A stretch of DNA of 64,000 nucleotides from Candidatus Multivoradales bacterium (GCA_965248925.1 CBDFLE010000006.1:1632001-1696000); one strand, 5' to 3'; counted from the stretch's first letter, positions 9,765 through 34,081 are shown. Program-made: numbers and translations. The notes: generated from the letters alone by a model not told the origin.

Positions 9765-12643
9765 GTGCAATATCGCCCATCCAAGCCACAAGCTCCCCTG
9801 TCCGAATTCGATCGTTACTGCCTGACCTTGCGTCTGGCGGCGCCGATAGTCCTGCCCTTTGAGCATGGCGGCGTGCTGCGTGGCTTGCTGTCGCGGGCGC
9901 TGAGCCAGCACCAACTGCCGGACGGACTGATCCTCTTTGCCGCCGAGTCGGGGCGGGTTCACTTCCGCGCCGGCGATCGCTATCGCTGGGTGGTCACTCT
10001 GGTGGGCGAGGCCCGTGGCCAGGCGGAGACACTGCTGGCGGGTATCGCCGCGGTGGGTGGCCGGGTCGACAAGGGGCCGGCACCGGTCTTGGGTGGTAAT
10101 TTCGTGCTCGAGGCCACCGACTTGCTGCCCGCCGTCGATCTCGACGCCGAGTTGGCCCAGCTCGGCGAGCGAGACGAGATCGTGCTGCTGCTGCGCTCGC
10201 CCCTCTGCCTGCCGCGGCCAAAGACTCCCCAGGGCGCACGAGGCGGCATCTTCGACCAACACTGCTTCCCGGCCGCGGCTTTCTTGGATCGACTTTGGCG
10301 CCGCCGCTTCTTCCTCCAGCACAGCCGCTATCCGCGGCCCGAAGAGCGGTCGACCCGGGCCGCGGTAGGAGAGGGTGCGACGGCCCGACCCCACCACTTG
10401 CTGGCGGTTGATCTGCCGGTTCGGGGCACCGGTGAGCACAAGCCTTCTTACAACCTTGCAGGGGTGCGCGGCCAAGTGGTCTTCGGCGGGCTGAGCGAGG
10501 AAGAGCGCTCAGGCCTGGTCGCCGGGATGTTCCTGCACCTCGGCAAGAGCGTTAACTTTGGCTTTGGCCGCTACACCCTCGAGGGCACCCTCGACCATGG
10601 CGACAAGCATTTTCTACCCAGCACCTCGCTGCTGGCTCACGCCGCCGACTCGGAGGTGCTCGAGGACGCCGTCGCCCATCTGCGCCAGAACCTGAAAACC
10701 AAGCATCAGCTGCCGGGCGATGAGGATGAGCCGATCCCCGGCCGGCTGATCGTCGATCTCTCGCGGCGGCTGCTCGACGGCAGCTACCAGCCCGGCCTGC
10801 TCAGCGGCTTCGTGCTGCCCAAGAAGGACGGCGGCGTGCGCCCTCTGGCGGTCCCCAGCGTGCGCGACCGGGTGGCGCAGCGGGCGGCGATCGAGGTCCT
10901 GGCACCGATCATCGATGGTTTGCTCGAGGATTCCTCCTTCGGCTACCGCCGGGGGTTTTCGCGGCAGGGCGCGGCGCGGGCCATAGAACGGGCCTATGCC
11001 GAGGGCTACCGCTATGTCCTCGACGCGGACATCCACGCCTTCTTCGATCAGGTCGATTGGTCGCTGCTCTTCGCCAAGCTCGAAGCGCTCTTCCCCCAGG
11101 AGCCGCTGGTGGAGCTGCTGCGGCAGTGGATCCAAGCGCCGGTGATCTTCGAGGGTCGGCGCATTCGCCGGCAACGGGGCCTGCCCCAAGGCAGCCCCAT
11201 CTCCCCTCTGCTGGCCAATCTCTATCTTGACCAGCTCGACGAGGCGTTGATCGACCAGGGCTTCAGGCTGGTGCGTTTTGCCGACGATTTCGTCGTCTTG
11301 ACCAAGGATCTCGACCGGGCACGAGCCGCCAAGCTCGCCACCGAGCGGGTGCTGCGAGAGCTGCGCCTGTCGCTCAACCAAGACGAGACCGCCATTCGTG
11401 CCATCGACGACGGCTTCAGCTACCTCGGCTATCTCTTCGTCCGCTCGATGGTGATCGAGAAACGCTCATCGTCGAGTGCCGACGGTTCGGCAGCTGAAGT
11501 GTCCCTCGACGCTGACGACGTGCCGGCTGGATCGTGGCTTGCCGGGGTGTCCCTGCGACGAATCGAGGAGCTGCTCTCCGGGCGTCGCGGGCCCAAGTCG
11601 GTGGCCGGGTTCGAACGAGTTCCTCTGGCCACCGGCGCCGCCCTCGACGCCGGCCGTTGGCCCCTCTATGTGGTGGGGCATGACACCCGCTTGTTCTTGC
11701 GGCGACGAACCGTGGTGCTGAAGCGCCCGGAACAGGAGCCCGCCGAGCTACCCATCGAGGCGCTTTCCCACGTCGTCTTTTGGGGCCGGGTGCGGGCGAC
11801 GGTACCCGTCTTGCGCGGCCTCGCACGGGCCGGTGTGCCGGCCTACTTCTGCCAGGTCGACGGCACCCTCGAAGCGGTCTTTGGTCCCTATGAAGAAAAG
11901 TGGCCGAATTGGCTGGCGCAGGCCCGCGCCGCCGACAACCCGGAGCTCTGCCTGCGTTTTGCCATGGCCACCATCGAAGCGCGGTTGCGCAACTTGCGGT
12001 CATGGCGGTGCGCTTTGGCTGGGGCGGCGGTTCGGCGCTCGCCGCTCAGCTGCGCCAGCTGGCGCGGGAAACTGTCAACAAGCAAAGCCTCGACTCGGTC
12101 CGTGGCCTTGAGGGTCGCGGCATGGCTTTGGTATTTGGAGCATTGGCGGATGCGCTCGACTCCGAGTGGGGTTTCACCGGTCGTCACCGCCGACCGCCGC
12201 CGGATCCGGTCAACGCGATGCTCTCCTTCGGCTACAGCTTGCTTTACAACCACACTGCCACGGCCTTGACCGAGGCTGGCCTCAGTCCGCGGATCGGCTT
12301 GATGCACGAACCCCGCGGCGCCCATCTCGCCTTGGCATCCGATCTGATGGAAGAAGTCCGCCACCTGGTCGAGTCGTTGGTCTGGACATTGATCCGCCGC
12401 CGGCAGGTCAAGCCGACAGATTTTCGCCCGTCGGCAGATGGCTACTACCCGGCGCTGCTGACCCAGGAGGCGCGGCGGATGTTTCTCGACGCCTTCGAGC
12501 GCCGGATGCTGACCCAGCTGACCCCGGAAAAGGGCGAAGAACCGATCAGCTACCGCCAGCTGCTGGTGCGCCAAGCCAGGCAGGTCAGGGAGCTGGTGAG
12601 CGGGCGTCAAGACAGCTATCATCCTCTGGTGATCCGTGGCTAG
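9765..12643 (+). CDS. cas1: Cas6-reverse transcriptase-Cas1 fusion, interrupted by a 1-bp frameshift near 11991-11996
   Basis: Cas6 G-loop HLGKSVNFGFGRY; RT motifs PKKDGGVRPLAVPSVRDRVAQ, DADIHAFFD, GLPQGSPISPLLANLYL, RFADDF; Cas1 motifs split across frames: PIEALSHVVFWG, then RGLEG, FTGRHRRPPPDPVNAMLSFGYSLL, GLMH, LASDLMEE. Confidence 0.92.
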
Positions 12644-26910: not shown

Positions 26911-27372
26911 CTAATCGAAAGTCTCTAGGATCTCAGCCGGCGCTTGCTCCGGCGACTCGAAGGGATTCACCACCCGCAGCTGACCGAAGAGCTGGCCGTG
27001 GTTGAGATCCTCGGTCAGCAGCACCTGGCAATCGCAGATCTGGGCGGCCGCGATGATCAGCGCATCCCACCACGAAAGGGAGTGGCGCTCGTACTGAACC
27101 CAAGCTCGTTCCATGACCGCAAGATCGATCGGCAGGGCTCGCCAAGAGGTGAGGTCGCGAATCAACTGCTGGGCCTGCCCGGCATCCATCCCAGGCTTCA
27201 GCTTGTGGGTGAGGGTGACGTAAAGTTCCTGCAACACCTGATAGCTAAGATGCCCCGAACGTTGGCGCCAAAGAAGGCTGAGCCAGTCGGCGGCCCTCGG
27301 CTGCTTGGCAGGCTCGCTGGAATCATGGCGATAGACCAAGACGTTGGTGTCAACGAAGACTGGCACGGTCAT
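26911..27372 (-). CDS. PIN-domain (VapC-like) toxin
   Basis: VFVDTNVLVY, QVLQELY, LSWWDALIIAAA, LLTEDL. Confidence 0.92.
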   Translation of the reverse strand: MTVPVFVDTNVLVYRHDSSEPAKQPRAADWLSLLWRQRSGHLSYQVLQELYVTLTHKLKPGMDAGQAQQLIRDLTSWRALPIDLAVMERAWVQYERHSLSWWDALIIAAAQICDCQVLLTEDLNHGQLFGQLRVVNPFESPEQAPAEILETFD

Positions 27373-27592
27373 GGAGAGACTCCCGAGTCGGGTAGCGAAC
27401 TTCTGGCCGTTTCAACCCGACGGGCTCCGCGGATAGGCAGCGATCCATCGCCAACTGATACTCGTCGCCGCGCCGCATCCAGCCGGAGATTCGCTCACTC
27501 AGCCATCGCGAGACACTGCGATCATCCTCAGCAGCTCGAACTCTGAGCCACAGAGCAACTTCCTCTGGCAATGTGATGGTGACGTTCTTCAT
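27350..27592 (-). CDS. Ribbon-helix-helix antitoxin
   Basis: MKNVTITLPEEVALWLRVRAAEDDRSVSRWL...PTRESLHDR. Confidence 0.85.
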   Translation of the reverse strand: MKNVTITLPEEVALWLRVRAAEDDRSVSRWLSERISGWMRRGDEYQLAMDRCLSAEPVGLKRPEVRYPTRESLHDRASLR

Positions 27593-27718
27593 CACAAAAA
27601 ATTAGTGCAACACGAGTTCCGTGTCAAGATAAGTTACAAAAGAAACTCGCCGACGCCTCCGGCGTCTTGCTGGCTCCGCCAGCAGGGCCGCTCCGCGACC
27701 CCGCGCTCCGCGCCTGGG

Positions 27719-28609
27719 CTACCGCCCTGAGCGCAGACCCTGACCTAGAGCAAGGCGGAAGCCCAAGAAGTCGTAGCGGAGCGACGGGTGCCAGTAGTAG
27801 CGGTAAGCCGCACGCACGTAGCGAGCGTCGTAGTTCCACGCACCCCCGCGGATGACCCGGTTGGCGCCTTCTTCAGGGCCAGTTGGGTTTCTCTGCTCAA
27901 CCGACTCGTAGCCGCCATACCAGTCGTGGCACCATTCCCAGACATTGCCAAGCGTGTCGTAGAGCCCCCAGGGGTTAGCCTCCTTCTCAGCCACCAGCCG
28001 AGTCCCCGCCCGGTGGTGGGGATGTTGCTTCTCCGGCCAGTTTGAAGAATCTTCACCCTCCGTGAGATCAAAGTCGACGCCACTGTTGCCGCCATACCAA
28101 CCGATATCATGGAGTAGCGGAGCATCGTTCGCACCGACGATTTCCAGGTCGCCGGCGTAGGTCGCGGTCTCAGTACCGGCGCGGCAAGCGTGCTCCCACT
28201 CTGCTTCGCTGGGCAAACGAAGCTCTAGTGCCGAGACTCTCCGGTTGAGAACTTGCAAGAACTCCTGGCAATCTTGCCAGCTCACCTGTTCTACCGGCCG
28301 CTGGAGCGATACAAAGCGGCTCGGATTTTCGCCGTCCATGACCGCTAGCCAAAGTGCCTGCGTACAGGGGGTGTCGGCCAGCCAGAATCCCGCGGTCAGG
28401 GTGACTCGATGCCGAATTTCGTCGTCATCGCGGCCTTGTTCCTCCTCTGGCGAGCCCATCCAGAATCTACCGGGCCGAATCCACCGTAGACGTTGCTCCA
28501 CCCCACCTATTTCAAAAACCACAAAAACCCCGTACCGATCCTCGCCCCAGGCTGTGGCCCAGCTAGGCGGGTTCCCAGAAGAGAGTGGGTGGTCCAGGAA
28601 ATCAGCCAT
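27719..28609 (-). CDS. DGR target 1: FGE-sulfatase/C-type-lectin-fold protein with C-terminal variable region
   Basis: PGRFWMGSP, TPCTQALW, PVEQVSW, RLPSEAEWEHACRAG, NPWGLYDTLGNVWEWC, RVIRGGAW...LGFRLAL. Confidence 0.92.
   Translation of the reverse strand: MADFLDHPLSSGNPPSWATAWGEDRYGVFVVFEIGGVEQRLRWIRPGRFWMGSPEEEQGRDDDEIRHRVTLTAGFWLADTPCTQALWLAVMDGENPSRFVSLQRPVEQVSWQDCQEFLQVLNRRVSALELRLPSEAEWEHACRAGTETATYAGDLEIVGANDAPLLHDIGWYGGNSGVDFDLTEGEDSSNWPEKQHPHHRAGTRLVAEKEANPWGLYDTLGNVWEWCHDWYGGYESVEQRNPTGPEEGANRVIRGGAWNYDARYVRAAYRYYWHPSLRYDFLGFRLALGQGLRSGR
27745..27870 (-). repeat. DGR variable region VR1
   Basis: 126-bp copy of TR with 11 mismatches, all at TR adenines. Confidence 0.95.
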
Positions 28610-28771
28610 GGAATTGGGGATCAAGAATCAGCCGCCGGTGAGCTTTCGCGGCTGCTGCTGCTGCCCTACTAACACACCGGCGGCCGTCACCATGTTTGCT
28701 GCCCACATAGCAAGGGTAAGCAGACTGGACGGCGGCCTGGTCAGTGGCGGGCACTGCGGCCCGCGTCTGCG

Positions 28772-28897
28772 CTAGAGCAAGGCGGAAGCCCAAGTTGTCG
28801 TTGCGGTTCGACGGGTGCCTGTAGTTGCGGTAAGCCGCACGCACGTTGCGTGCGTTGTTGTTCCACGCACCCCCGCGGATGACCCGGTTGGCGCCTT
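28772..28897 (-). ncRNA. DGR template repeat (TR)
   Basis: AAC-rich invariant copy (TGG AAC AAC AAC GCA CGC AAC...TCG AAC CGC AAC GAC AAC TTG GGC TTC CGC) just downstream of the RT. Confidence 0.95.
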
Positions 28898-28929
28898 TTT
28901 GGCCGCGCCCGAGTTGGCAATCATATCGC

Positions 28930-29961
28930 CTAGGCATCAATGCTACCTCGCTGGACGAGTTCTTCGCGGCGCCAGGCTCGCGCCTCGGCATGCGCAGTCA
29001 CGGCATAGACAGAGGCATAGCCGGCCTGCAACTGCTGACCGTCGATCAGACCGGCAAGATAAGCGGTCTCGAAACGTCGCCTGGCAGTGGCATAGCGCCG
29101 CCGACGGCGGCGGGATAGCAGCAGCCGGTCGCCGAAGATCCGAAAGCCGAGCAGCGGCAGACCGCGGCAGCTTGGTTGGACCTGCCAGTGTGGCTTGATC
29201 GTCAGGTGCAGAGCCTGATCTGCATGTGCCACGGCCTGCTGAGCCGCCGCCCGCACAACGGCTGGGCTGTTCCCCCAGATCGCCACATCGTCCATGTATC
29301 GCACCATCGCAACACCTTGCCCCTCCAACAGAAGGCGATCGAGGCTTGCCAAGTAGAGGTTGGCGAAGTGCTGCGAAGTCAGCGCGCCGATGGGCAACCC
29401 TCGAAGCCCTTCTCTGGATCCTTGGTCAGTCGCCGGAGATAGATAGCTGGCGATGATCCGGTCGATCAAGTGCAGCGTTGCCGCACCCTTGATACGCCGC
29501 CTGAGCTGGGAGCGCAAGATAGCATGATCGATACTGGCAAAGTAGGCTCGCACGTCGAGCTTGACGAACCAACCATAGCGAGCCGTATGACACTGCGCCC
29601 GCTTTACAGCTGCCAGCGTACCCTTGCCCAGCCGGCAGGCAAATGTATCGTCCACCAGCAGTCGTTCGAGTACCGGGCCTACCCGGGCCATGAGCGCATG
29701 GTGAAGCACTCGCTCGCGAAAACAAGGCGCCTGGATAACTCGCCGCTTGGGATCATGAATGGTGAACGAACGCCTCGATCCGACCCGGACCCGTTGCTCT
29801 AGTATTTCGCGCCCGAGACGTGCCAGCTCTGACAGAAGATTCGCCTCGAAGGCCCGAACCTCCGGCTGCTGGCGCTTGCCCTTGGCGGCACGCCAAAACG
29901 CTGCACCGAGGTGTTCTAGCGAGGCAACATCCTCTAGTTGCACCAGCGCCCGCTTAGTCAT
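28930..29961 (-). CDS. DGR reverse transcriptase
   Basis: HDPKRRVIQAPCFRERVLHHAL, KLDVRAYFASIDH, GLPIGALTSQHFANLYL, RYMDD. Confidence 0.95.
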   Translation of the reverse strand: MTKRALVQLEDVASLEHLGAAFWRAAKGKRQQPEVRAFEANLLSELARLGREILEQRVRVGSRRSFTIHDPKRRVIQAPCFRERVLHHALMARVGPVLERLLVDDTFACRLGKGTLAAVKRAQCHTARYGWFVKLDVRAYFASIDHAILRSQLRRRIKGAATLHLIDRIIASYLSPATDQGSREGLRGLPIGALTSQHFANLYLASLDRLLLEGQGVAMVRYMDDVAIWGNSPAVVRAAAQQAVAHADQALHLTIKPHWQVQPSCRGLPLLGFRIFGDRLLLSRRRRRRYATARRRFETAYLAGLIDGQQLQAGYASVYAVTAHAEARAWRREELVQRGSIDA

Positions 29962-30430
29962 GCCGCCCCTCCTGGTCCGCGGCTGAATTCCAGGCGGCAC
30001 GCAGAGCCTCCACGAACGCGGCACCGTATTTCTCAGCCCGTTTGGCGCCCACTCCTGCCAATGCTTCCAGCTCACTGGGGGTCTGCATTCGCTGGCGCAC
30101 CATGGCAGCCAACTGCGCATTAGTGAAGACAGAATAGGGTGGTACGCCGTCTCGCTGCGCAAGCTCCTTACGGAGCTTTCTCAGCTCGGCAAAGACAGTG
30201 AAATCTGCGCTCGACAACACTTCTCTATAGTCGATCTTCCCTTTTCTGATCGCCGGAATTGCTGCTGAACTCTCCTGATAATTGATGCATAACGCCCAGA
30301 AAGCAGCCCCATCGCCCACTACTAGATGGCGCTTGACCGACAGCACCCGATGGCTGCCGAGAAAGGCATTCAGCTCCGCCTCGGCGGTATCGGGAGCGAG
30401 CGCCGGCACCCCGAAGAATTTCATCTTCAT
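29954..30430 (-). CDS. HRDC-domain DGR accessory protein
   Basis: AELNAFLGSHRVLSV; LRKLRKELAQRDGVPPYSVFTNAQL...GVGAKRAEKYG; sits between target 2 and the RT, where Avd usually lies. Confidence 0.88.
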   Translation of the reverse strand: MKMKFFGVPALAPDTAEAELNAFLGSHRVLSVKRHLVVGDGAAFWALCINYQESSAAIPAIRKGKIDYREVLSSADFTVFAELRKLRKELAQRDGVPPYSVFTNAQLAAMVRQRMQTPSELEALAGVGAKRAEKYGAAFVEALRAAWNSAADQEGRHD

Positions 30431-33081
30431 TTTTCCGCGGCCTCCGGCCGCGAAGGGTCGCGAAACGTACTCGCCCCTGGAATCTCTGCATCCGGAGGGC
30501 GCTCCGCGCCCGCGGGCTCCGCCCGCTCTGCTTGCGGCTCCGCCGCCTTGAGCGCACCCTGACCTAGAGCAAGGCGGAAGCCCAAGTAGCCGCTGCGGAG
30601 CGACGGGAGCCTGAAGCGGCGGTAAGCCGCACGCACGCCGCGTGCGAAGTCGTACCACGCACCCCCGCGGATGACCCGGCCGGCGCCTTCTCGTGGAACT
30701 CCGTAGCTAGCGCTCCAATGATCCTGACACCACTCTTCGACATTCCCTAACATGTCGAACAGTCCCCAGGGATTCGGAGGCTTCTCAGCAACTGGATGGG
30801 TCTCTCCCCCGCTATTGTGGTGGTACCAGGCGACTTTCTCGATTTCTGGTGCTCTACCTTCCTCATCGATTGTCAGCCCACCCTGGTAGGTTGCCGTCTC
30901 GGTGCCCGCGCGACAGGCGTACTCCCACTCGACTTCCAGAGGAAAGCGACATTCGAGGCCGGGATTCTGTTCGTGCAGCGTCTTGAAGAAGCTGTCGCAA
31001 TCTTCCCAGCTGATCTTCTCTACGGGGCGGTCGTCCGCGGGGAAGTTGCTTGGATTGTTGCCCATAACAACTTGCCACAGACGTTGGGTGCAGGGGGTAT
31101 CGGCCAACCAGAACCCGCGCCGGATCACTTCGAGATGGCGGGGCCCCTCATCGTCCCAACGACCGGGCTCATCTTCGGGAGACCCCATCCAATAGCGCCC
31201 TGGCGGAATCCAGCGCAGGCGTTGACTGACTCCCTTGACTTCGAATGAAGCCCACAGACCGAAGCGATCCCGGCCCATGGCACTCGCCCAAGGGGGACGG
31301 GTGACCTGGTGGAGGGTGGCCTCGGTGCGATCGGTGCGGAGGATCACAGCCGGTGCCGAAGGCAGAAGAATCTCAGTGGACTCTGAGAGCAGCACCGGCA
31401 CCGGTACGGCCTCGGGCTCGGCGCCCCCGACCACGCGGTCGACACTGTCAACCGCCGTCAAGAAGCTGCCAGGGGGAACCGTTCTGAGAGCCGGCGCAAA
31501 GCGAATCGACTGACAGTAGTGAAAGACCTGCCAGCGTTGCAGGCGACCCTGAGAATCACTAGGAGGAATCCGATCCGAACCTTCAGAAGTCGAGGCTTCG
31601 GCATCCCCCGTCGCCCTCCAGGCACGCCAGAGGTAGGGACGTAGCGATTCGTTCTGCCACAGGGAACTCGGATGCCGGTCGCGGAGCGCCCGGCCGGCGA
31701 AAGCACCTACCGCGTCGACTACCTCTTCGTCGGTGGCCCCGCCACCGTCGACGGTCTCAGCCACCCGGCGCCACAGCAAGTGGGCAGCACCGATCTCCGC
31801 CTCGCTGAGGGTGCCTGGCGGCAGCTCGGCTTCGCTGTCGAAGGCCAGGACCTCATCGAGCCAAATCTCCTTGGCCTTGCCTGCCCGCCACGCCCGCATA
31901 GTCTGCACCACGGCTGTCTTGAGGCGCGGCGCCAGGCGGCGAAACTTCTGCTGTAGCCGGGTTCTGAGCGGCCGCGCGAGGTCTGCTGAATCGGCCAGCC
32001 CTGGGTAGACTTCAGGATGCATCCACACATCGCCCTCGACTCCGAGGTCGCTGCTGGGTAGAAGCAGTCGCAGTGCCCGCAGCAACCCCGGCTCGATGTT
32101 GGAAGCAAAGGCCAGCAAGGTCAGCAAGTCCTCTGCACGCTGCTCGCGCAGGTCGGGGTTTTCGCTTTCGACCCGCCGCGAAGCAGCGGACGGGCGCGCC
32201 CAATCCACCGGCTGCCAGACCGCCATCGCCTTGAAGTCCCAGCGGCGTGCGGGACAGGGGACCAGGGCGGTACAGCGCACGCCGCGCCGCGCCAGGCGAT
32301 GGCCAATCGCCGCCCACTCGCCACGTTGCCGGGCGCCAGCCAAGCAGCCGAGGTCACCCAGCACCAGGAGTGGCACTCCGGCCAAGGCCGGCGGCCTGGC
32401 ACTGCGTTCTTCACCCCACTGCCAAGGCCGCTGCTCGTCTTCGTAGAAAACAACCTGCTCAATCCGCCGCCGGCCAAGCAGCGCTCGCAGCATCCTCAGC
32501 ACGCGATCCTGATCCTCCCAAAAAGGCAGTAAGCGGAGGCTGCGGTCGACCATCAGCATAACTCTGGGGGACCAGGCGCGCAGAGTGCGGTAAGGCAGGC
32601 GGTCGGGAAGCCCACCCCGGCTGGTGTGCTCGATGTAGGCGTCGACATCCAGCTCGCGACTGACCAGAGTGGTGGCGAGCGCGCGTTGCAAGCGCGGCCA
32701 CAGGCGGGCATCCGAGACGATCGGCGGAGCGGCTGGTGCCTCGCCCTGCCTGCGGCCCAGGCCCTCCCAACCGATCGGCTCTGCCTGCGCGCGGGGCTCG
32801 GCTTCGTCACTCGGATCGAGATCTCGGTAGGCGATCGATTCGAGTCGCCAGAAGGGGATCGCGGCAAGTGGCAGCTTCGCTGTGGACTCGTCAAGCTCTG
32901 GACGTTGCGAAAAATCTTGGCGAGCGGCGGACAGGCGATCCGGCAGATCAGCGTCGGCCGCAAACGTGACCGCGCGCCCGTAGCCAAGTCGCTTTGCCAT
33001 CATACTGAGGGCTTCATCGCCCTGCGCGTGGAAAGCTCTGAGTAGATCAGCCCGGCCGGTCCCGGCCGCCGGTATCGTCAT
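30427..33081 (-). CDS. DGR target 2: degenerate vWA-like N-terminus plus C-terminal FGE/CLec domain with VR
   Basis: ELDVDA...MLMVDRSLRLLPFWEDQ and LLVLGDLGCL (vWA-like); C-terminal FGE motifs PGRYWMGSP, NPWGLFDMLGNVEEWC, RVIRGGAW. Confidence 0.88.
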   Translation of the reverse strand: MTIPAAGTGRADLLRAFHAQGDEALSMMAKRLGYGRAVTFAADADLPDRLSAARQDFSQRPELDESTAKLPLAAIPFWRLESIAYRDLDPSDEAEPRAQAEPIGWEGLGRRQGEAPAAPPIVSDARLWPRLQRALATTLVSRELDVDAYIEHTSRGGLPDRLPYRTLRAWSPRVMLMVDRSLRLLPFWEDQDRVLRMLRALLGRRRIEQVVFYEDEQRPWQWGEERSARPPALAGVPLLVLGDLGCLAGARQRGEWAAIGHRLARRGVRCTALVPCPARRWDFKAMAVWQPVDWARPSAASRRVESENPDLREQRAEDLLTLLAFASNIEPGLLRALRLLLPSSDLGVEGDVWMHPEVYPGLADSADLARPLRTRLQQKFRRLAPRLKTAVVQTMRAWRAGKAKEIWLDEVLAFDSEAELPPGTLSEAEIGAAHLLWRRVAETVDGGGATDEEVVDAVGAFAGRALRDRHPSSLWQNESLRPYLWRAWRATGDAEASTSEGSDRIPPSDSQGRLQRWQVFHYCQSIRFAPALRTVPPGSFLTAVDSVDRVVGGAEPEAVPVPVLLSESTEILLPSAPAVILRTDRTEATLHQVTRPPWASAMGRDRFGLWASFEVKGVSQRLRWIPPGRYWMGSPEDEPGRWDDEGPRHLEVIRRGFWLADTPCTQRLWQVVMGNNPSNFPADDRPVEKISWEDCDSFFKTLHEQNPGLECRFPLEVEWEYACRAGTETATYQGGLTIDEEGRAPEIEKVAWYHHNSGGETHPVAEKPPNPWGLFDMLGNVEEWCQDHWSASYGVPREGAGRVIRGGAWYDFARGVRAAYRRFRLPSLRSGYLGFRLALGQGALKAAEPQAERAEPAGAERPPDAEIPGASTFRDPSRPEAAEK
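30564..30689 (-). repeat. DGR variable region VR2
   Basis: 126-bp copy of TR with 17 mismatches, all at TR adenines. Confidence 0.95.
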
Positions 33082-33112
33082 CGGCGAACCAAGCCGAGGA
33101 CCTCTCCCCGCC

Positions 33113-34081
33113 CTACCACCCGACTTCCTCATCCGGGTGCTTACGCAGGGCAAATGCCCTGATCTTGCCTAATGCCAGCTTCTGTGCCGCTGCGTCTCCC
33201 GCCCACCGGCTGGCGACCACTCGCAAGAGATCCAGATACTCAGCGCCTCCCGGTGGGCAAAGCCCGCGGCCCTCTACTGCCTCGCGGTCGTCAGCCACCA
33301 TCTCCGCAGCGCTCTGCAACACCTCTTCTGCGAGGTCACCAAAATGCGCCCGGCCACGGGCGACAAGACGCTCGATGAGTTCGAACCGCTTCTTGGGCCA
33401 CCTGAGCTGCAGCACCAGGCAGCGGCGGATGAAGGCATCGGGTAGGGTACGCTCCTCGTTGGTGGTGACCACCACCAACGGCGCCAGCGCCTCTACTGGC
33501 CTTGAGACCACCCTGCCATCCGGTAGCCGAAACTGGCCTTGTCCCAGGGCCTCCAGCAGGCCATTGGGCACCGCCGGATCGGCTTTGTCGATCTCGTCGA
33601 CCAACAGCACAGCACCATCGGCCCCCGTCCAACCTTCAGGAGTCCAGGGTTCGAGCCCACCGCCAAGGGTGGCCTGCTCCTTGGCACCCTCCCAGTCGAA
33701 AACCCACCACAAGGGACCTGGGGTGGTGAACCGCTTGGGGTCGAGCTGCGCCCGCGCCTCTTGCACCTCTCCCAGGTGGCTGATGATCTGCGCTTCGGCG
33801 AGCCTGGCCACCGCGTCGACGGAGTAGAGCAGATCGCGAGACTCAGTCCGCGCATCGACGGTGAAAGGGAGGAATGCCCGACCGAGCATTGCCGCGGCGG
33901 CGCGGGCCAGCTGGCTCTTGCCGACTCCCGGCTCGCCGCGCACCAAGAGCGGCCGCTGACAAGCCAAGGCCGCGTTGACAGCCTCGACCTGATCCGCCTC
34001 AAAGACATGCGCGGTCTGCGGCCAAGTATCGTAGGCGGCGATGGTCTCGGTGTGGGGTGGCTCGCATTCGAGATACTTCAC
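33113..34081 (-). CDS. MoxR-family AAA+ ATPase
   Basis: RPLLVRGEPGVGKSQLA, VLLVDEIDKAD, VVVTTNEERTLPDAFIRRC. Confidence 0.93.
   Translation of the reverse strand: MKYLECEPPHTETIAAYDTWPQTAHVFEADQVEAVNAALACQRPLLVRGEPGVGKSQLARAAAAMLGRAFLPFTVDARTESRDLLYSVDAVARLAEAQIISHLGEVQEARAQLDPKRFTTPGPLWWVFDWEGAKEQATLGGGLEPWTPEGWTGADGAVLLVDEIDKADPAVPNGLLEALGQGQFRLPDGRVVSRPVEALAPLVVVTTNEERTLPDAFIRRCLVLQLRWPKKRFELIERLVARGRAHFGDLAEEVLQSAAEMVADDREAVEGRGLCPPGGAEYLDLLRVVASRWAGDAAAQKLALGKIRAFALRKHPDEEVGW

Follow-up and report, generated by a model that had tools for sequence, protein, structure and literature searches.

Arrays of GGA-capped mini-hairpins follow the variable repeats of an HRDC-type diversity-generating retroelement and may mark its target sites

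The window analysed here is a 64,000-nucleotide (nt) stretch of the genome of Candidatus Multivoradales bacterium (GCA_965248925.1, CBDFLE010000006.1:1632001-1696000; genome of 8.0 Mb, 62% G+C). Its minus strand carries a complete diversity-generating retroelement (DGR), which we name DGR-A, and our subject is the arrays of short DNA hairpins that follow the variable repeats (VRs) of this element but not its template repeat (TR). DGR-A comprises, in order, a 908-amino-acid (aa) target with VR2, an HRDC accessory gene, the reverse transcriptase (RT) gene, the TR and a 301-aa target with VR1. The larger target (30427..33153, by longest open reading frame (ORF)) carries VR2 (30564..30689) in a C-terminal FGE-sulfatase/C-type-lectin-like domain (Pfam FGE-sulfatase, E=2.8e-36, residues 648-862). 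The HRDC gene (29954..30430, 158 aa; Pfam HRDC, E=4.4e-20) lies directly upstream of, and overlaps, the start of the RT gene (28930..29961, 343 aa; Pfam RVT_1, E=4.4e-17). Then come the TR (28772..28897) and the smaller target (27719..28624), whose FGE-sulfatase domain (Pfam E=1.1e-42) carries VR1 (27745..27870); the 5' limits of both VRs are approximate. The TR can be aligned with the VRs over ~125 nt, up to a shared CTAG at which homology stops, the last base being 30564 in VR2 and 27745 in VR1. A DGR-type RT thus stands beside a TR from which the VRs differ at TR adenines (12 of 13 mismatches in VR1, 19 of 19 in VR2 and 18 of 19 in a third VR described below), and the HRDC gene within the cassette places the element in architecture C of Wu et al. 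2018, the HRDC-type DGRs. The accessory protein has as its top profile match in the PDB the HRDC domain of RecQ (1wud, E=3e-15); its N-terminal ~70 aa, of unknown family, gave no Pfam or PDB sequence match.

A preliminary description of this DNA had reported eight minus-strand hairpins with a GGA triloop closed by a C-G pair, and all eight are present. Those after VR2 lie within the coding tail of the 908-aa target: GCGGC-GGA-GCCGC (30534..30546, 5 bp), GCGGGC-GGA-GCCCGC (30512..30526, 6 bp), GGGCGC-GGA-GCGCCC (30497..30511, 6 bp) and a fourth with the core CGCGGCC-GGA-GGCCGCG (30434..30454, 9 bp including one G-T), 4 nt before the HRDC start codon. Those after VR1 all lie beyond the stop codon: GCGC-GGA-GCGC (27703..27713, 4 bp), a hairpin with the core GTCGC-GGA-GCGGC (27682..27704, up to 10 bp with two G-T), TGCTGGC-GGA-GCCAGCA (27668..27684, 7 bp) and GACGCC-GGA-GGCGTC (27652..27666, 6 bp), the last followed by a T-rich run that makes a terminator-like site at 27664..27648. 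The TR continues as CGCAGACG and, in agreement with the same description, no GGA-loop hairpin lies 3' of it. Folding of the flanks as single-stranded DNA (ssDNA) reveals the same contrast: the minimum-free-energy (MFE) structure of the VR1 flank contains all four hairpins (z=-2.65 against shuffles), the centroid structure of the VR2 flank likewise contains all four, and the TR flank folds no better than its shuffles (z=-0.49).

All three VRs of DGR-A are followed by three to five G+C-rich, GGA-capped stems on the sense strand, mostly built on the core GCGGAGC, and the TR by none. This core is found in three of the four VR1 hairpins, three of the four VR2 hairpins and three hairpins of VR3, the others having CCGGAGG or CGGGACG. 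The first loops lie at +36 (VR1), +23 (VR2) and +20 (VR3) from the end of homology, and later hairpins extend to +85 to +119. The preliminary description had also opposed a VR continuation, CTAGGTCAGGGT, to a TR continuation, CTAGCGCAGACG, as a contrast at the initiation-of-mutagenic-homing (IMH) site; this holds for VR1 and VR2 and fails for VR3, which shares only CTAGGTC. We note in addition a different stem-loop 7 nt past the TR (28744-28766, minus strand; GCGGGC-CGCAGT-GCCCGC), with a 6-bp stem, a 6-nt loop and arms identical to those of the second VR2 hairpin; it may be a piece of the DGR RNA spacer structure, or a coincidence.

To place these arrays in the genome, all triloop hairpins whose stem is perfect over at least 4 bp were enumerated on both strands, and those within 150 nt on one strand were counted as a cluster. 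The preliminary description had set its proposal against the case of a motif equally common genome-wide; the C-GGA-G hairpin is instead rare, with 312 occurrences that rank it 109th among 256 loop/closing-pair types, and so is not a favoured hairpin of this genome. In fact, 301 of the 312 are singletons, and the remainder form two pairs, one triple (VR1) and one quadruple (VR2). Only four places therefore hold at least two such hairpins per 150 nt, three of them directly 3' of a VR and the fourth an unrelated pair. Arithmetic from the genome counts gives an expectation of ~0.003 per 150 nt, and clusters of three or four are consequently not an effect of composition.

One of the two pairs revealed VR3, 185 kb away and outside the window (C6:~1847000, minus strand; locus L161), so the suggested use of the motif as a finder of remote targets proved workable. 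A 20-nt probe from the VR end has four matches in the genome, namely VR1, VR2, the TR and this site. The VR3 target gene is an 807-codon open frame on the minus strand with the VR at its 3' end (L161:1462-3885 = G000:C6:1846962-1849385), and encodes an Mrr-like nuclease, a protein kinase and an FGE-sulfatase domain (Mrr_cat, Pkinase and FGE-sulfatase). Its flank has three C-GGA-G hairpins of 6 bp, among which one includes a G-T pair, a weak one of 3 bp and a 6-bp G-GGA-C hairpin. The tails of VR2 and VR3 can be aligned and have three hairpins in common, in which a G-C pair has become C-G (hairpin 1), a G-C pair A-T (hairpin 2) and a C-G pair T-G (hairpin 3), none of them disruptive. The first two are double compensatory changes. 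These differences bear out the earlier remark that stems differ while the loop is fixed, and point to a constraint that is structural rather than at the level of sequence.

Comparison within the protein family leads to the same sites. Nine FGE-sulfatase paralogs could be aligned at the C-terminus: each of the three DGR-A targets has four CGGAG sites within 170 nt, and the other six have 0, 0, 1, 0, 0 and 0. Separately, a lone CCCGC-GGA-GCGGG hairpin stands ~110 nt past the C-terminus of an FGE-sulfatase paralog without a TR match (G000:C5:~1917730, minus strand); it may be due to chance or be the relic of a former target.

The arrays of the window are one instance of a wider pattern. Of 8000 scored candidates, 2601 were RT homologs at E<=1e-20, the nearest being 65% identical. 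Thirty-five of these were aligned to search one-genome-per-species contigs, and the best 80 of 243 confirmed loci were kept, including loci of Acidobacteriota, Planctomycetota, Myxococcota, Gemmatimonadota and many Pseudomonadota. An HRDC accessory homolog lies directly upstream of the RT in 78 of these 80 loci. TR/VR pairs were sought as ungapped self-matches of 50-300 nt with at least 4 mismatches, at least 80% of them at one base; same-strand A-type pairs were retained and inverted VRs left out. Pairs were found in 61 of the 80 loci, while 19, and 18 of the 80 viral loci introduced below, gave none by these criteria. Three of 121 VR ends had less than 100 nt of flank and were dropped, leaving 118 VR flanks.

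In the 160 nt past these 118 ends, C-GGA-G is the commonest triloop hairpin (65, followed by G-GAG-C with 14 and G-GGA-C with 12), and none was found past 58 TRs of the clade. The heptamer GCGGAGC is present in 103 of the 118 VR flanks and in 1 of 60 TR flanks (61 HRDC-type loci). It is strand-specific, with 166 copies in VR flanks against one of its reverse complement, and dense, at 8.79/kb in VR flanks against 0.37/kb over whole loci and 0.05/kb just upstream of the VR; it is the top 7-mer of VR flanks (24.8-fold enriched), its first copy lying at a median of 43 nt past the homology end. Ninety-four copies are coding (frames 54/25/15) and 71 lie past the stop codon (21/26/24); the heptamer occurs only past the stop in 48 VRs and only before it in 51. 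Since coding and post-stop copies are spread over mixed frames, the heptamer is a feature of the nucleic acid and not of a peptide, and this analysis rules out a peptide repeat as its origin.

The shorter motif CGGAG is likewise set in stems mainly at VRs: 66 of 267 flank sites have a stem of at least 4 bp, against 58 of 2567 sites elsewhere in the same loci, and the 66 hairpins have 37 distinct stem arms. Seven hairpins with stems of at least 6 bp were counted outside the flanks; they represent six sites (one palindrome was counted on both strands), at least two of which (L001, L017) follow VR-like ends that the TR/VR finder missed. G-GGA-C hairpins are also enriched, the 118 flanks containing 12 of the 36 found over 954 kb, and they occur in loci without the heptamer, so that the constant element is a GGA loop on a G+C stem. 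Loop choice is strict: among GNA triloops of the VR flanks we count GGA 78 times, GAA once, GCA 6 times and GTA twice, and GGA accounts for 78 of all 217 triloop hairpins. Flanks of the clade have between 0 and 5 hairpins, the arrays of the window's genome being at the upper end.

An independent metagenome set of 80 loci, gathered via an HRDC alignment (42-55% identity), gives the same picture. Thirty-seven loci are at least 2.5 kb long and 28 of those have TR/VR pairs; GCGGAGC is found in 29 of 39 VR flanks and 0 of 26 TR flanks. The heptamer also occurs within 200 nt before the HRDC start in 49 of 66 metagenome loci. A complementary motif after the TR was sought as well: none of 60 TR flanks of the clade contains GCTCCGC, and CTCCG is there at background level. 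We further rejected the idea that the motif derives, by inverted complementarity, from the conserved VR 3' end (GGCTTCCGCC), since GCGGAAGCC occurs once in the 118 flanks, against 49 for GCGGAGCC and 92 for GCGGAGCG.

Apart from the hairpins, the HRDC clade (L001-L080) has GTGAGC within the first 30 nt past VR homology in 41 of 118 VR flanks, against 0 of 60 TR flanks; GTGAGC may be the IMH-like distinguishing sequence of the clade. The window's own VRs carry GTCAGGGT or GTCCTGCG in its place.

Other DGRs provide the contrast. In 80 viral loci outside the clade, with RTs 29-42% identical, an HRDC homolog is found in 0 of 80; TR/VR pairs are present in 62, and GCGGAGC occurs in 0 of the 62 VR flanks and CGGAG in 5. 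Where viral flanks have hairpins with stems of 5 bp or more, these mostly occur singly and have a tetraloop, which is GRNA in 28 of 49 (GACA 17, GATA 5), so that the viral set reproduces the published GRNA rule and thereby validates the pipeline. A FastTree phylogeny of 115 RTs (the window's RT and 114 of the 123 loci with pairs, RT match >220 residues; midpoint root, local supports only) separates an HRDC clade of 61 rows from a viral clade of 54 rows with 100% local support. Labelled by loop, the former has 34 GGA rows, 23 without a strict hairpin and 4 with other loops; the latter has no GGA row, a subclade of 22 rows using GACA/GCCA and other branches GATA/GGTA. Because related sequences share labels, this labelled tree is descriptive only.

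A separate feature of the viral DGRs (L081-L121 and others) is that 29 of 62 VR flanks have, in the first 60 nt past the VR, at least three CTG triplets spaced 7-9 nt apart. Such rows occur in 0 of 62 viral TR flanks and 0 of 118 HRDC-clade flanks and stand, by eye, mostly at VRs without a hairpin; they may be a different VR-specific flank mark.

The same genome carries two more complete DGRs, DGR-B and DGR-C, with RTs 34% and 36% identical to that of the window. In each, TR and RT stand between two FGE-sulfatase targets, one on the same strand and the other inverted. DGR-B (C6 ~4.816 Mb; L244, G000:C6:4813501-4818500) has an HTH_17-like accessory protein (excisionase-type helix-turn-helix) and two VRs with 11/11 and 16/16 mismatches at adenines. 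DGR-C (C5 ~0.146 Mb; L245, G000:C5:144001-148500) has an HTH_17 protein together with a bAvd-like protein (41.9 bits, cut-off 40) and two VRs with 13/14 and 11/12. One DGR-B VR is followed by a 6-bp C-GCA-G hairpin; after the two DGR-C VRs we find a 10-bp C-AGA-G and an 8-bp C-GGA-G hairpin, respectively. A single long triloop hairpin, even one with a GGA loop, therefore occurs with an Avd-type system. DGR-A and its clade stand out by the GCGGAGC core, often present in repeated copies on short stems.

A hairpin at a DGR target is, as a kind, already known, and the link that the preliminary description drew to such hairpins and to the stability of GNA loops is sound (PMC3240598, PMC13037366). 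In the DGR of phage BPP-1, a 24-bp sequence after the VR forms a hairpin/cruciform of which the stem sequence is free and the loop sequence-dependent, with none at the TR in the account of Guo et al. 2011 (PMC3240598). Similarly to the BPP-1 and phage hairpin, the DGR-A hairpins stand shortly 3' of the VR and not after the TR, lie on the sense strand and combine a free, G+C-rich stem with a constrained loop of the form G...A; the freedom of the stem is evident in the 37 distinct arms among 66 hairpins and in the compensatory changes, and the constraint on the loop in the ratio of 78 GGA to one GAA. They do not fit the MyDGR search rule (7-10-bp stem, GRNA loop, 4-34 bp from the VR; PMC6602519). 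The loop is GGA in every case, of 3 nt where theirs is a 4-nt GRNA; GGA fits the GRA triloop of Nanoarchaeota. Stems are mostly 4-7 bp, with perfect stems of 4, 5, 6, 6, 6, 7 and 7 bp, and two reach 9-10 bp only with G-T pairs. Each VR has three to five hairpins instead of one; they extend over about 20-120 nt, the later ones beyond the published 4-34 bp, and the accessory protein is HRDC in place of Avd.

The DGRs of Nanoarchaeota (DUSEL4) provide a similar loop, with GRA triloops inside target genes (Paul et al. 2015, PMC4372165). As described there, they resemble DGR-A in the constrained G-R-A trinucleotide and in the position of the hairpin inside the target coding sequence; they are archaeal with one hairpin per target, whereas the present ones belong to a bacterial HRDC-type system with a fixed GGA, the GCGGAGC core and often several copies. 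The core itself is the N=G member of the mini-hairpins GCGNAGC/GCGNNAGC defined in a 2026 review (PMC13037366), with a GNA loop closed by C-G upon a second G-C pair. According to the review this is a DNA-specific signature, with two G-C pairs and a sheared G-A pair, nuclease resistance, poor binding of single-stranded DNA-binding protein (SSB) and melting temperatures in the order A 76 > G 73 > C 71 > T 70 C. The review covers origins of replication and transcription, and DGR targets are not mentioned in its available portion. It also describes the virion RNA polymerase of phage N4, which binds a GCGGAGC hairpin (3-nt loop, 5-bp stem) with a dissociation constant (KD) of 2 nM via the central G. 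The N4 promoters and the DGR-A flanks thus have an ssDNA GGA-loop GCGGAGC hairpin in common, read sequence-specifically by a protein in the former; the N4 hairpins are promoters, no such polymerase or function is indicated here, and we take N4 as a precedent for loop reading only. Group IIC introns at terminators offer a looser parallel (PMC3240598): their DNA target likewise includes a G+C-rich ssDNA stem-loop in which structure counts over sequence, but the loop sequence matters little and the intron inserts, while in a DGR information replaces a homologous repeat.

No paper was found on a GCGGAGC tag or on hairpin arrays at DGR targets, in a coverage that left supplements and the Legionella DGR paper (Arambula 2013) outside. 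The available main text of Dore et al. 2024 mentions no hairpin or stem-loop, and the supplementary hairpin tables of Wu et al. 2018 and Dore et al. 2024 could bear on novelty.

We arrive at a reading to which we give a probability of about 70%: the hairpin arrays would be a cis-acting target-site mark of HRDC-type DGRs, the version used in this lineage of the hairpin/cruciform 3' of the VR that aids homing of the cDNA. By analogy with BPP-1 we infer that the tag raises the efficiency of homing and helps to tell recipient from donor. For the stem-loops of other DGRs, unwinding of the DNA or pausing of replication has been proposed (Naorem et al. 2017, PMC5703328). A 2026 PLoS Genetics paper describes the integration step as still unknown, suggests that the stem-loop prolongs an open state, and reports that its deletion impairs editing severely, not completely (PMC12875486). 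Judging from mini-hairpin chemistry and from the replication result of that paper, a sense strand of DGR-A that became single-stranded would fold into very stable, nuclease-resistant and SSB-poor mini-hairpins of the GCGNAGC type, and negative supercoiling could also extrude them. Once folded, the hairpins would hold the adjacent VR/IMH region open or pause synthesis, and the adenine-mutagenised cDNA could then anneal and be incorporated at the VR. In this way the hairpins would mark the VR as recipient and the TR as donor, and the task of the one longer hairpin found in other lineages is here probably shared by several short ones. The marked preference for GGA over the more stable GAA suggests that some factor also reads the loop.

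The orientation of the targets may be connected with this mechanism. According to PMC12875486, a target is favoured when it is co-directional with replication, since the lagging-strand template is then the strand complementary to the cDNA. In this genome, dnaA (C6:2699640, E=3.7e-68) lies where the GC skew switches, at ~2.65-2.70 Mb; the region 1.66-1.85 Mb is consequently traversed by forks moving toward lower coordinates, which makes all three minus-strand DGR-A targets co-directional with replication. Their sense strand, with GGA and not TCC loops, is therefore the lagging-strand template to which the cDNA would anneal.

Several findings weigh against the target-site reading. In MFE ssDNA folds of the 118 flanks, GGA falls in a hairpin loop for 79 of 166 heptamers (56 exact triloops), compared with 42 of 354 random triplets; about half of the clade's heptamers are thus not predicted as loops, and many of these have the two core G-C pairs only or sit at the tip of long imperfect hairpins (Magnetococcales, Competibacteraceae, Azospirillum), with the proviso that nearest-neighbour folding parameters do not model the special stability of GCGNAGC. 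A GGA hairpin whose stem is perfect over at least 4 bp is absent from 63 of the 118 flanks, single in 40, double in 10 and present three or more times in 5, and 15 of 118 flanks lack the heptamer. Given these absences, the element may act partly as a sequence motif rather than as a structure; given that at least three strict hairpins occur in only 5 of 118 relatives' flanks, multiplicity is no requirement of the clade. One VR of DGR-B has no hairpin at all, and hairpins may be dispensable in many systems, because Wu et al. 2018 list high-confidence inverted repeats in 127 of 372 DGRs (14 HRDC-type DGRs only being in their set). The replication-orientation argument is weak, as the three targets are in effect only two independent loci and, among the 7 VRs that the genome's three DGRs have, 2 are head-on. 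Finally, sequence alone does not separate a function at the DNA level from one at the RNA level.

The last point bears on the view that the hairpins act at the RNA level in the transcripts of the targets, as terminators, stabilisers of the 3' end or devices of translational coupling, and have no relation to homing. The hairpins are transcribed, the last VR1 hairpin with its T-rich run resembles a terminator, and the closeness of the last VR2 hairpin to the HRDC start codon could suit translational coupling. However, a G+C stem-loop followed by a T-run is found at 1 of 8 hairpins, the other seven being without; the VR2 hairpins lie inside an ORF that runs on into the HRDC and RT genes; and the motif is not in TR flanks (1 of 60) nor at non-target paralogs. 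In addition, GCGNAGC is a DNA-specific signature, Wu et al. 2018 report terminators past the IMH in a minority of DGRs only, and no Rfam family matches, the only Rfam match in 27000-33500 being at chance level inside the RT gene (E=0.46), which excludes a known RNA family. We consider the RNA-level view very unlikely. Still less credible is the view that the arrays are a functionless by-product of shared descent of paralogous tails, of a low-complexity Ala-Glu-Pro (AEP) repeat, or of a dispersed repeat of the repetitive extragenic palindrome (REP) or miniature inverted-repeat transposable element (MITE) type. It draws on the alignable tails of VR2 and VR3, which both encode AEP-like repeats, and on the preference for frame 0 (GCG GAG = Ala-Glu) in 54 of 94 coding copies; but the VR1 array lies wholly past the stop codon and would have mixed frames if read through, 71 of 166 clade copies are non-coding and even over frames, and the motif is kept across phyla with 37 different arms and with compensatory stem changes. 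The hairpin type is rare and unclustered genome-wide, so a REP/MITE-like repeat is ruled out by 312 unrelated hairpins, 301 of them isolated, and tandem duplication is ruled out by Tandem Repeats Finder, which gives one weak 7-nt row only. Genome rarity, frame analysis and arm diversity have thus largely refuted the by-product view already.

The preliminary description had gone further and proposed a multi-hairpin address code, in which the GGA loops are bound by the HRDC protein and a target is identified by how many hairpins it has and how far apart they stand. The co-occurrence is striking, with HRDC in 78 of 80 clade loci and GCGGAGC in 103 of 118 VR flanks against 0 of 80 and 0 of 62 in the viral out-clade; the domain is RecQ-like, HRDC domains bind nucleic acids per Wu et al. 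2018, and N4 virion RNA polymerase is a precedent for a protein reading this very ssDNA hairpin with nanomolar affinity. The preference for GGA also exceeds what stability explains: GGA outnumbers GAA by 78 to 1 although GAA is the more stable, which argues against selection for stability alone and suggests that some factor (the HRDC protein, the RT or a host factor) reads the loop. Yet the case for HRDC as the reader is weakened: HRDC presence is fully confounded with RT lineage, because scans with the HRDC alignment gave only the same clade (80 metagenome and 2 viral loci), and the Avd-type DGR-C of the same genome has its own 8-bp C-GGA-G hairpin after one VR. The code is not supported by the comparison of loci. 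The same tag recurs in 61 loci of many phyla, with 0-5 copies per flank and with offsets that differ between VRs of one TR, so that it carries no address; it therefore behaves as a generic tag, and TR/VR homology supplies the address. An address code read by HRDC is accordingly unlikely.

A more speculative form of the target-site mark is that the GGA mini-hairpins serve as a protein-read ssDNA landing pad. The HRDC protein or the RT would recognise the central G, as N4 polymerase does, and would dock the cDNA-RNA complex on SSB-free lagging-strand-template hairpins by the VR; several copies would give avidity, the loop would co-evolve with the DGR lineage (GGA in this clade, GACA/GCCA and GATA/GGTA in two viral subclades), and tag and homology together would decide which loci of a genome are possible targets. 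We regard this proposal as doubtful.

Other features of the window lie beside these subjects. Directly downstream of the VR1 array, at 26911-27595 on the minus strand, an RHH-like ORF (ribbon-helix-helix, weak, E=0.003) overlaps a PIN-domain ORF (E=1.4e-12), and the two are likely a toxin-antitoxin pair. A further RT-domain match lies at 10752-11432 on the plus strand within an 838-codon open frame (29% identity to the DGR RT, E=1.2e-15); by similarity it is not of the DGR type, and comparable matches occur elsewhere on C6. Contigs of four public runs from one sample break at the TR/VR repeats and list no variant letters, which has no bearing on activity either way.

In sum, the observation made on the window is real, highly non-random and more general than first noted, and its interpretation was right in kind, as a DGR targeting element, and not in its specifics. 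How the cDNA of a DGR finds and replaces the VR is still unresolved according to PMC12875486, and here a strand-specific heptamer follows about 87% of VRs, compared with about 2% of TRs, in a large clade of HRDC-type DGRs that crosses phyla. This clade appears to be the one linked by Dore et al. 2024 to conflict systems of multicellular bacteria, and loci from metagenome-assembled genomes (MAGs) of Chromatiaceae and Thiohalocapsa fall within it. In practice, the heptamer is a detector of remote or degenerate targets, as VR3 illustrates. The MyDGR rule would miss these hairpins, which may help to explain why repeats have been found in only about a third of DGRs, the proportion being that of Wu et al. 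2018. The heptamer also provides a defined substrate, GCGGAGC against GCGAAGC or the reverse orientation, for the question of whether the loop at DGR targets is read by a protein or serves through its stability only.

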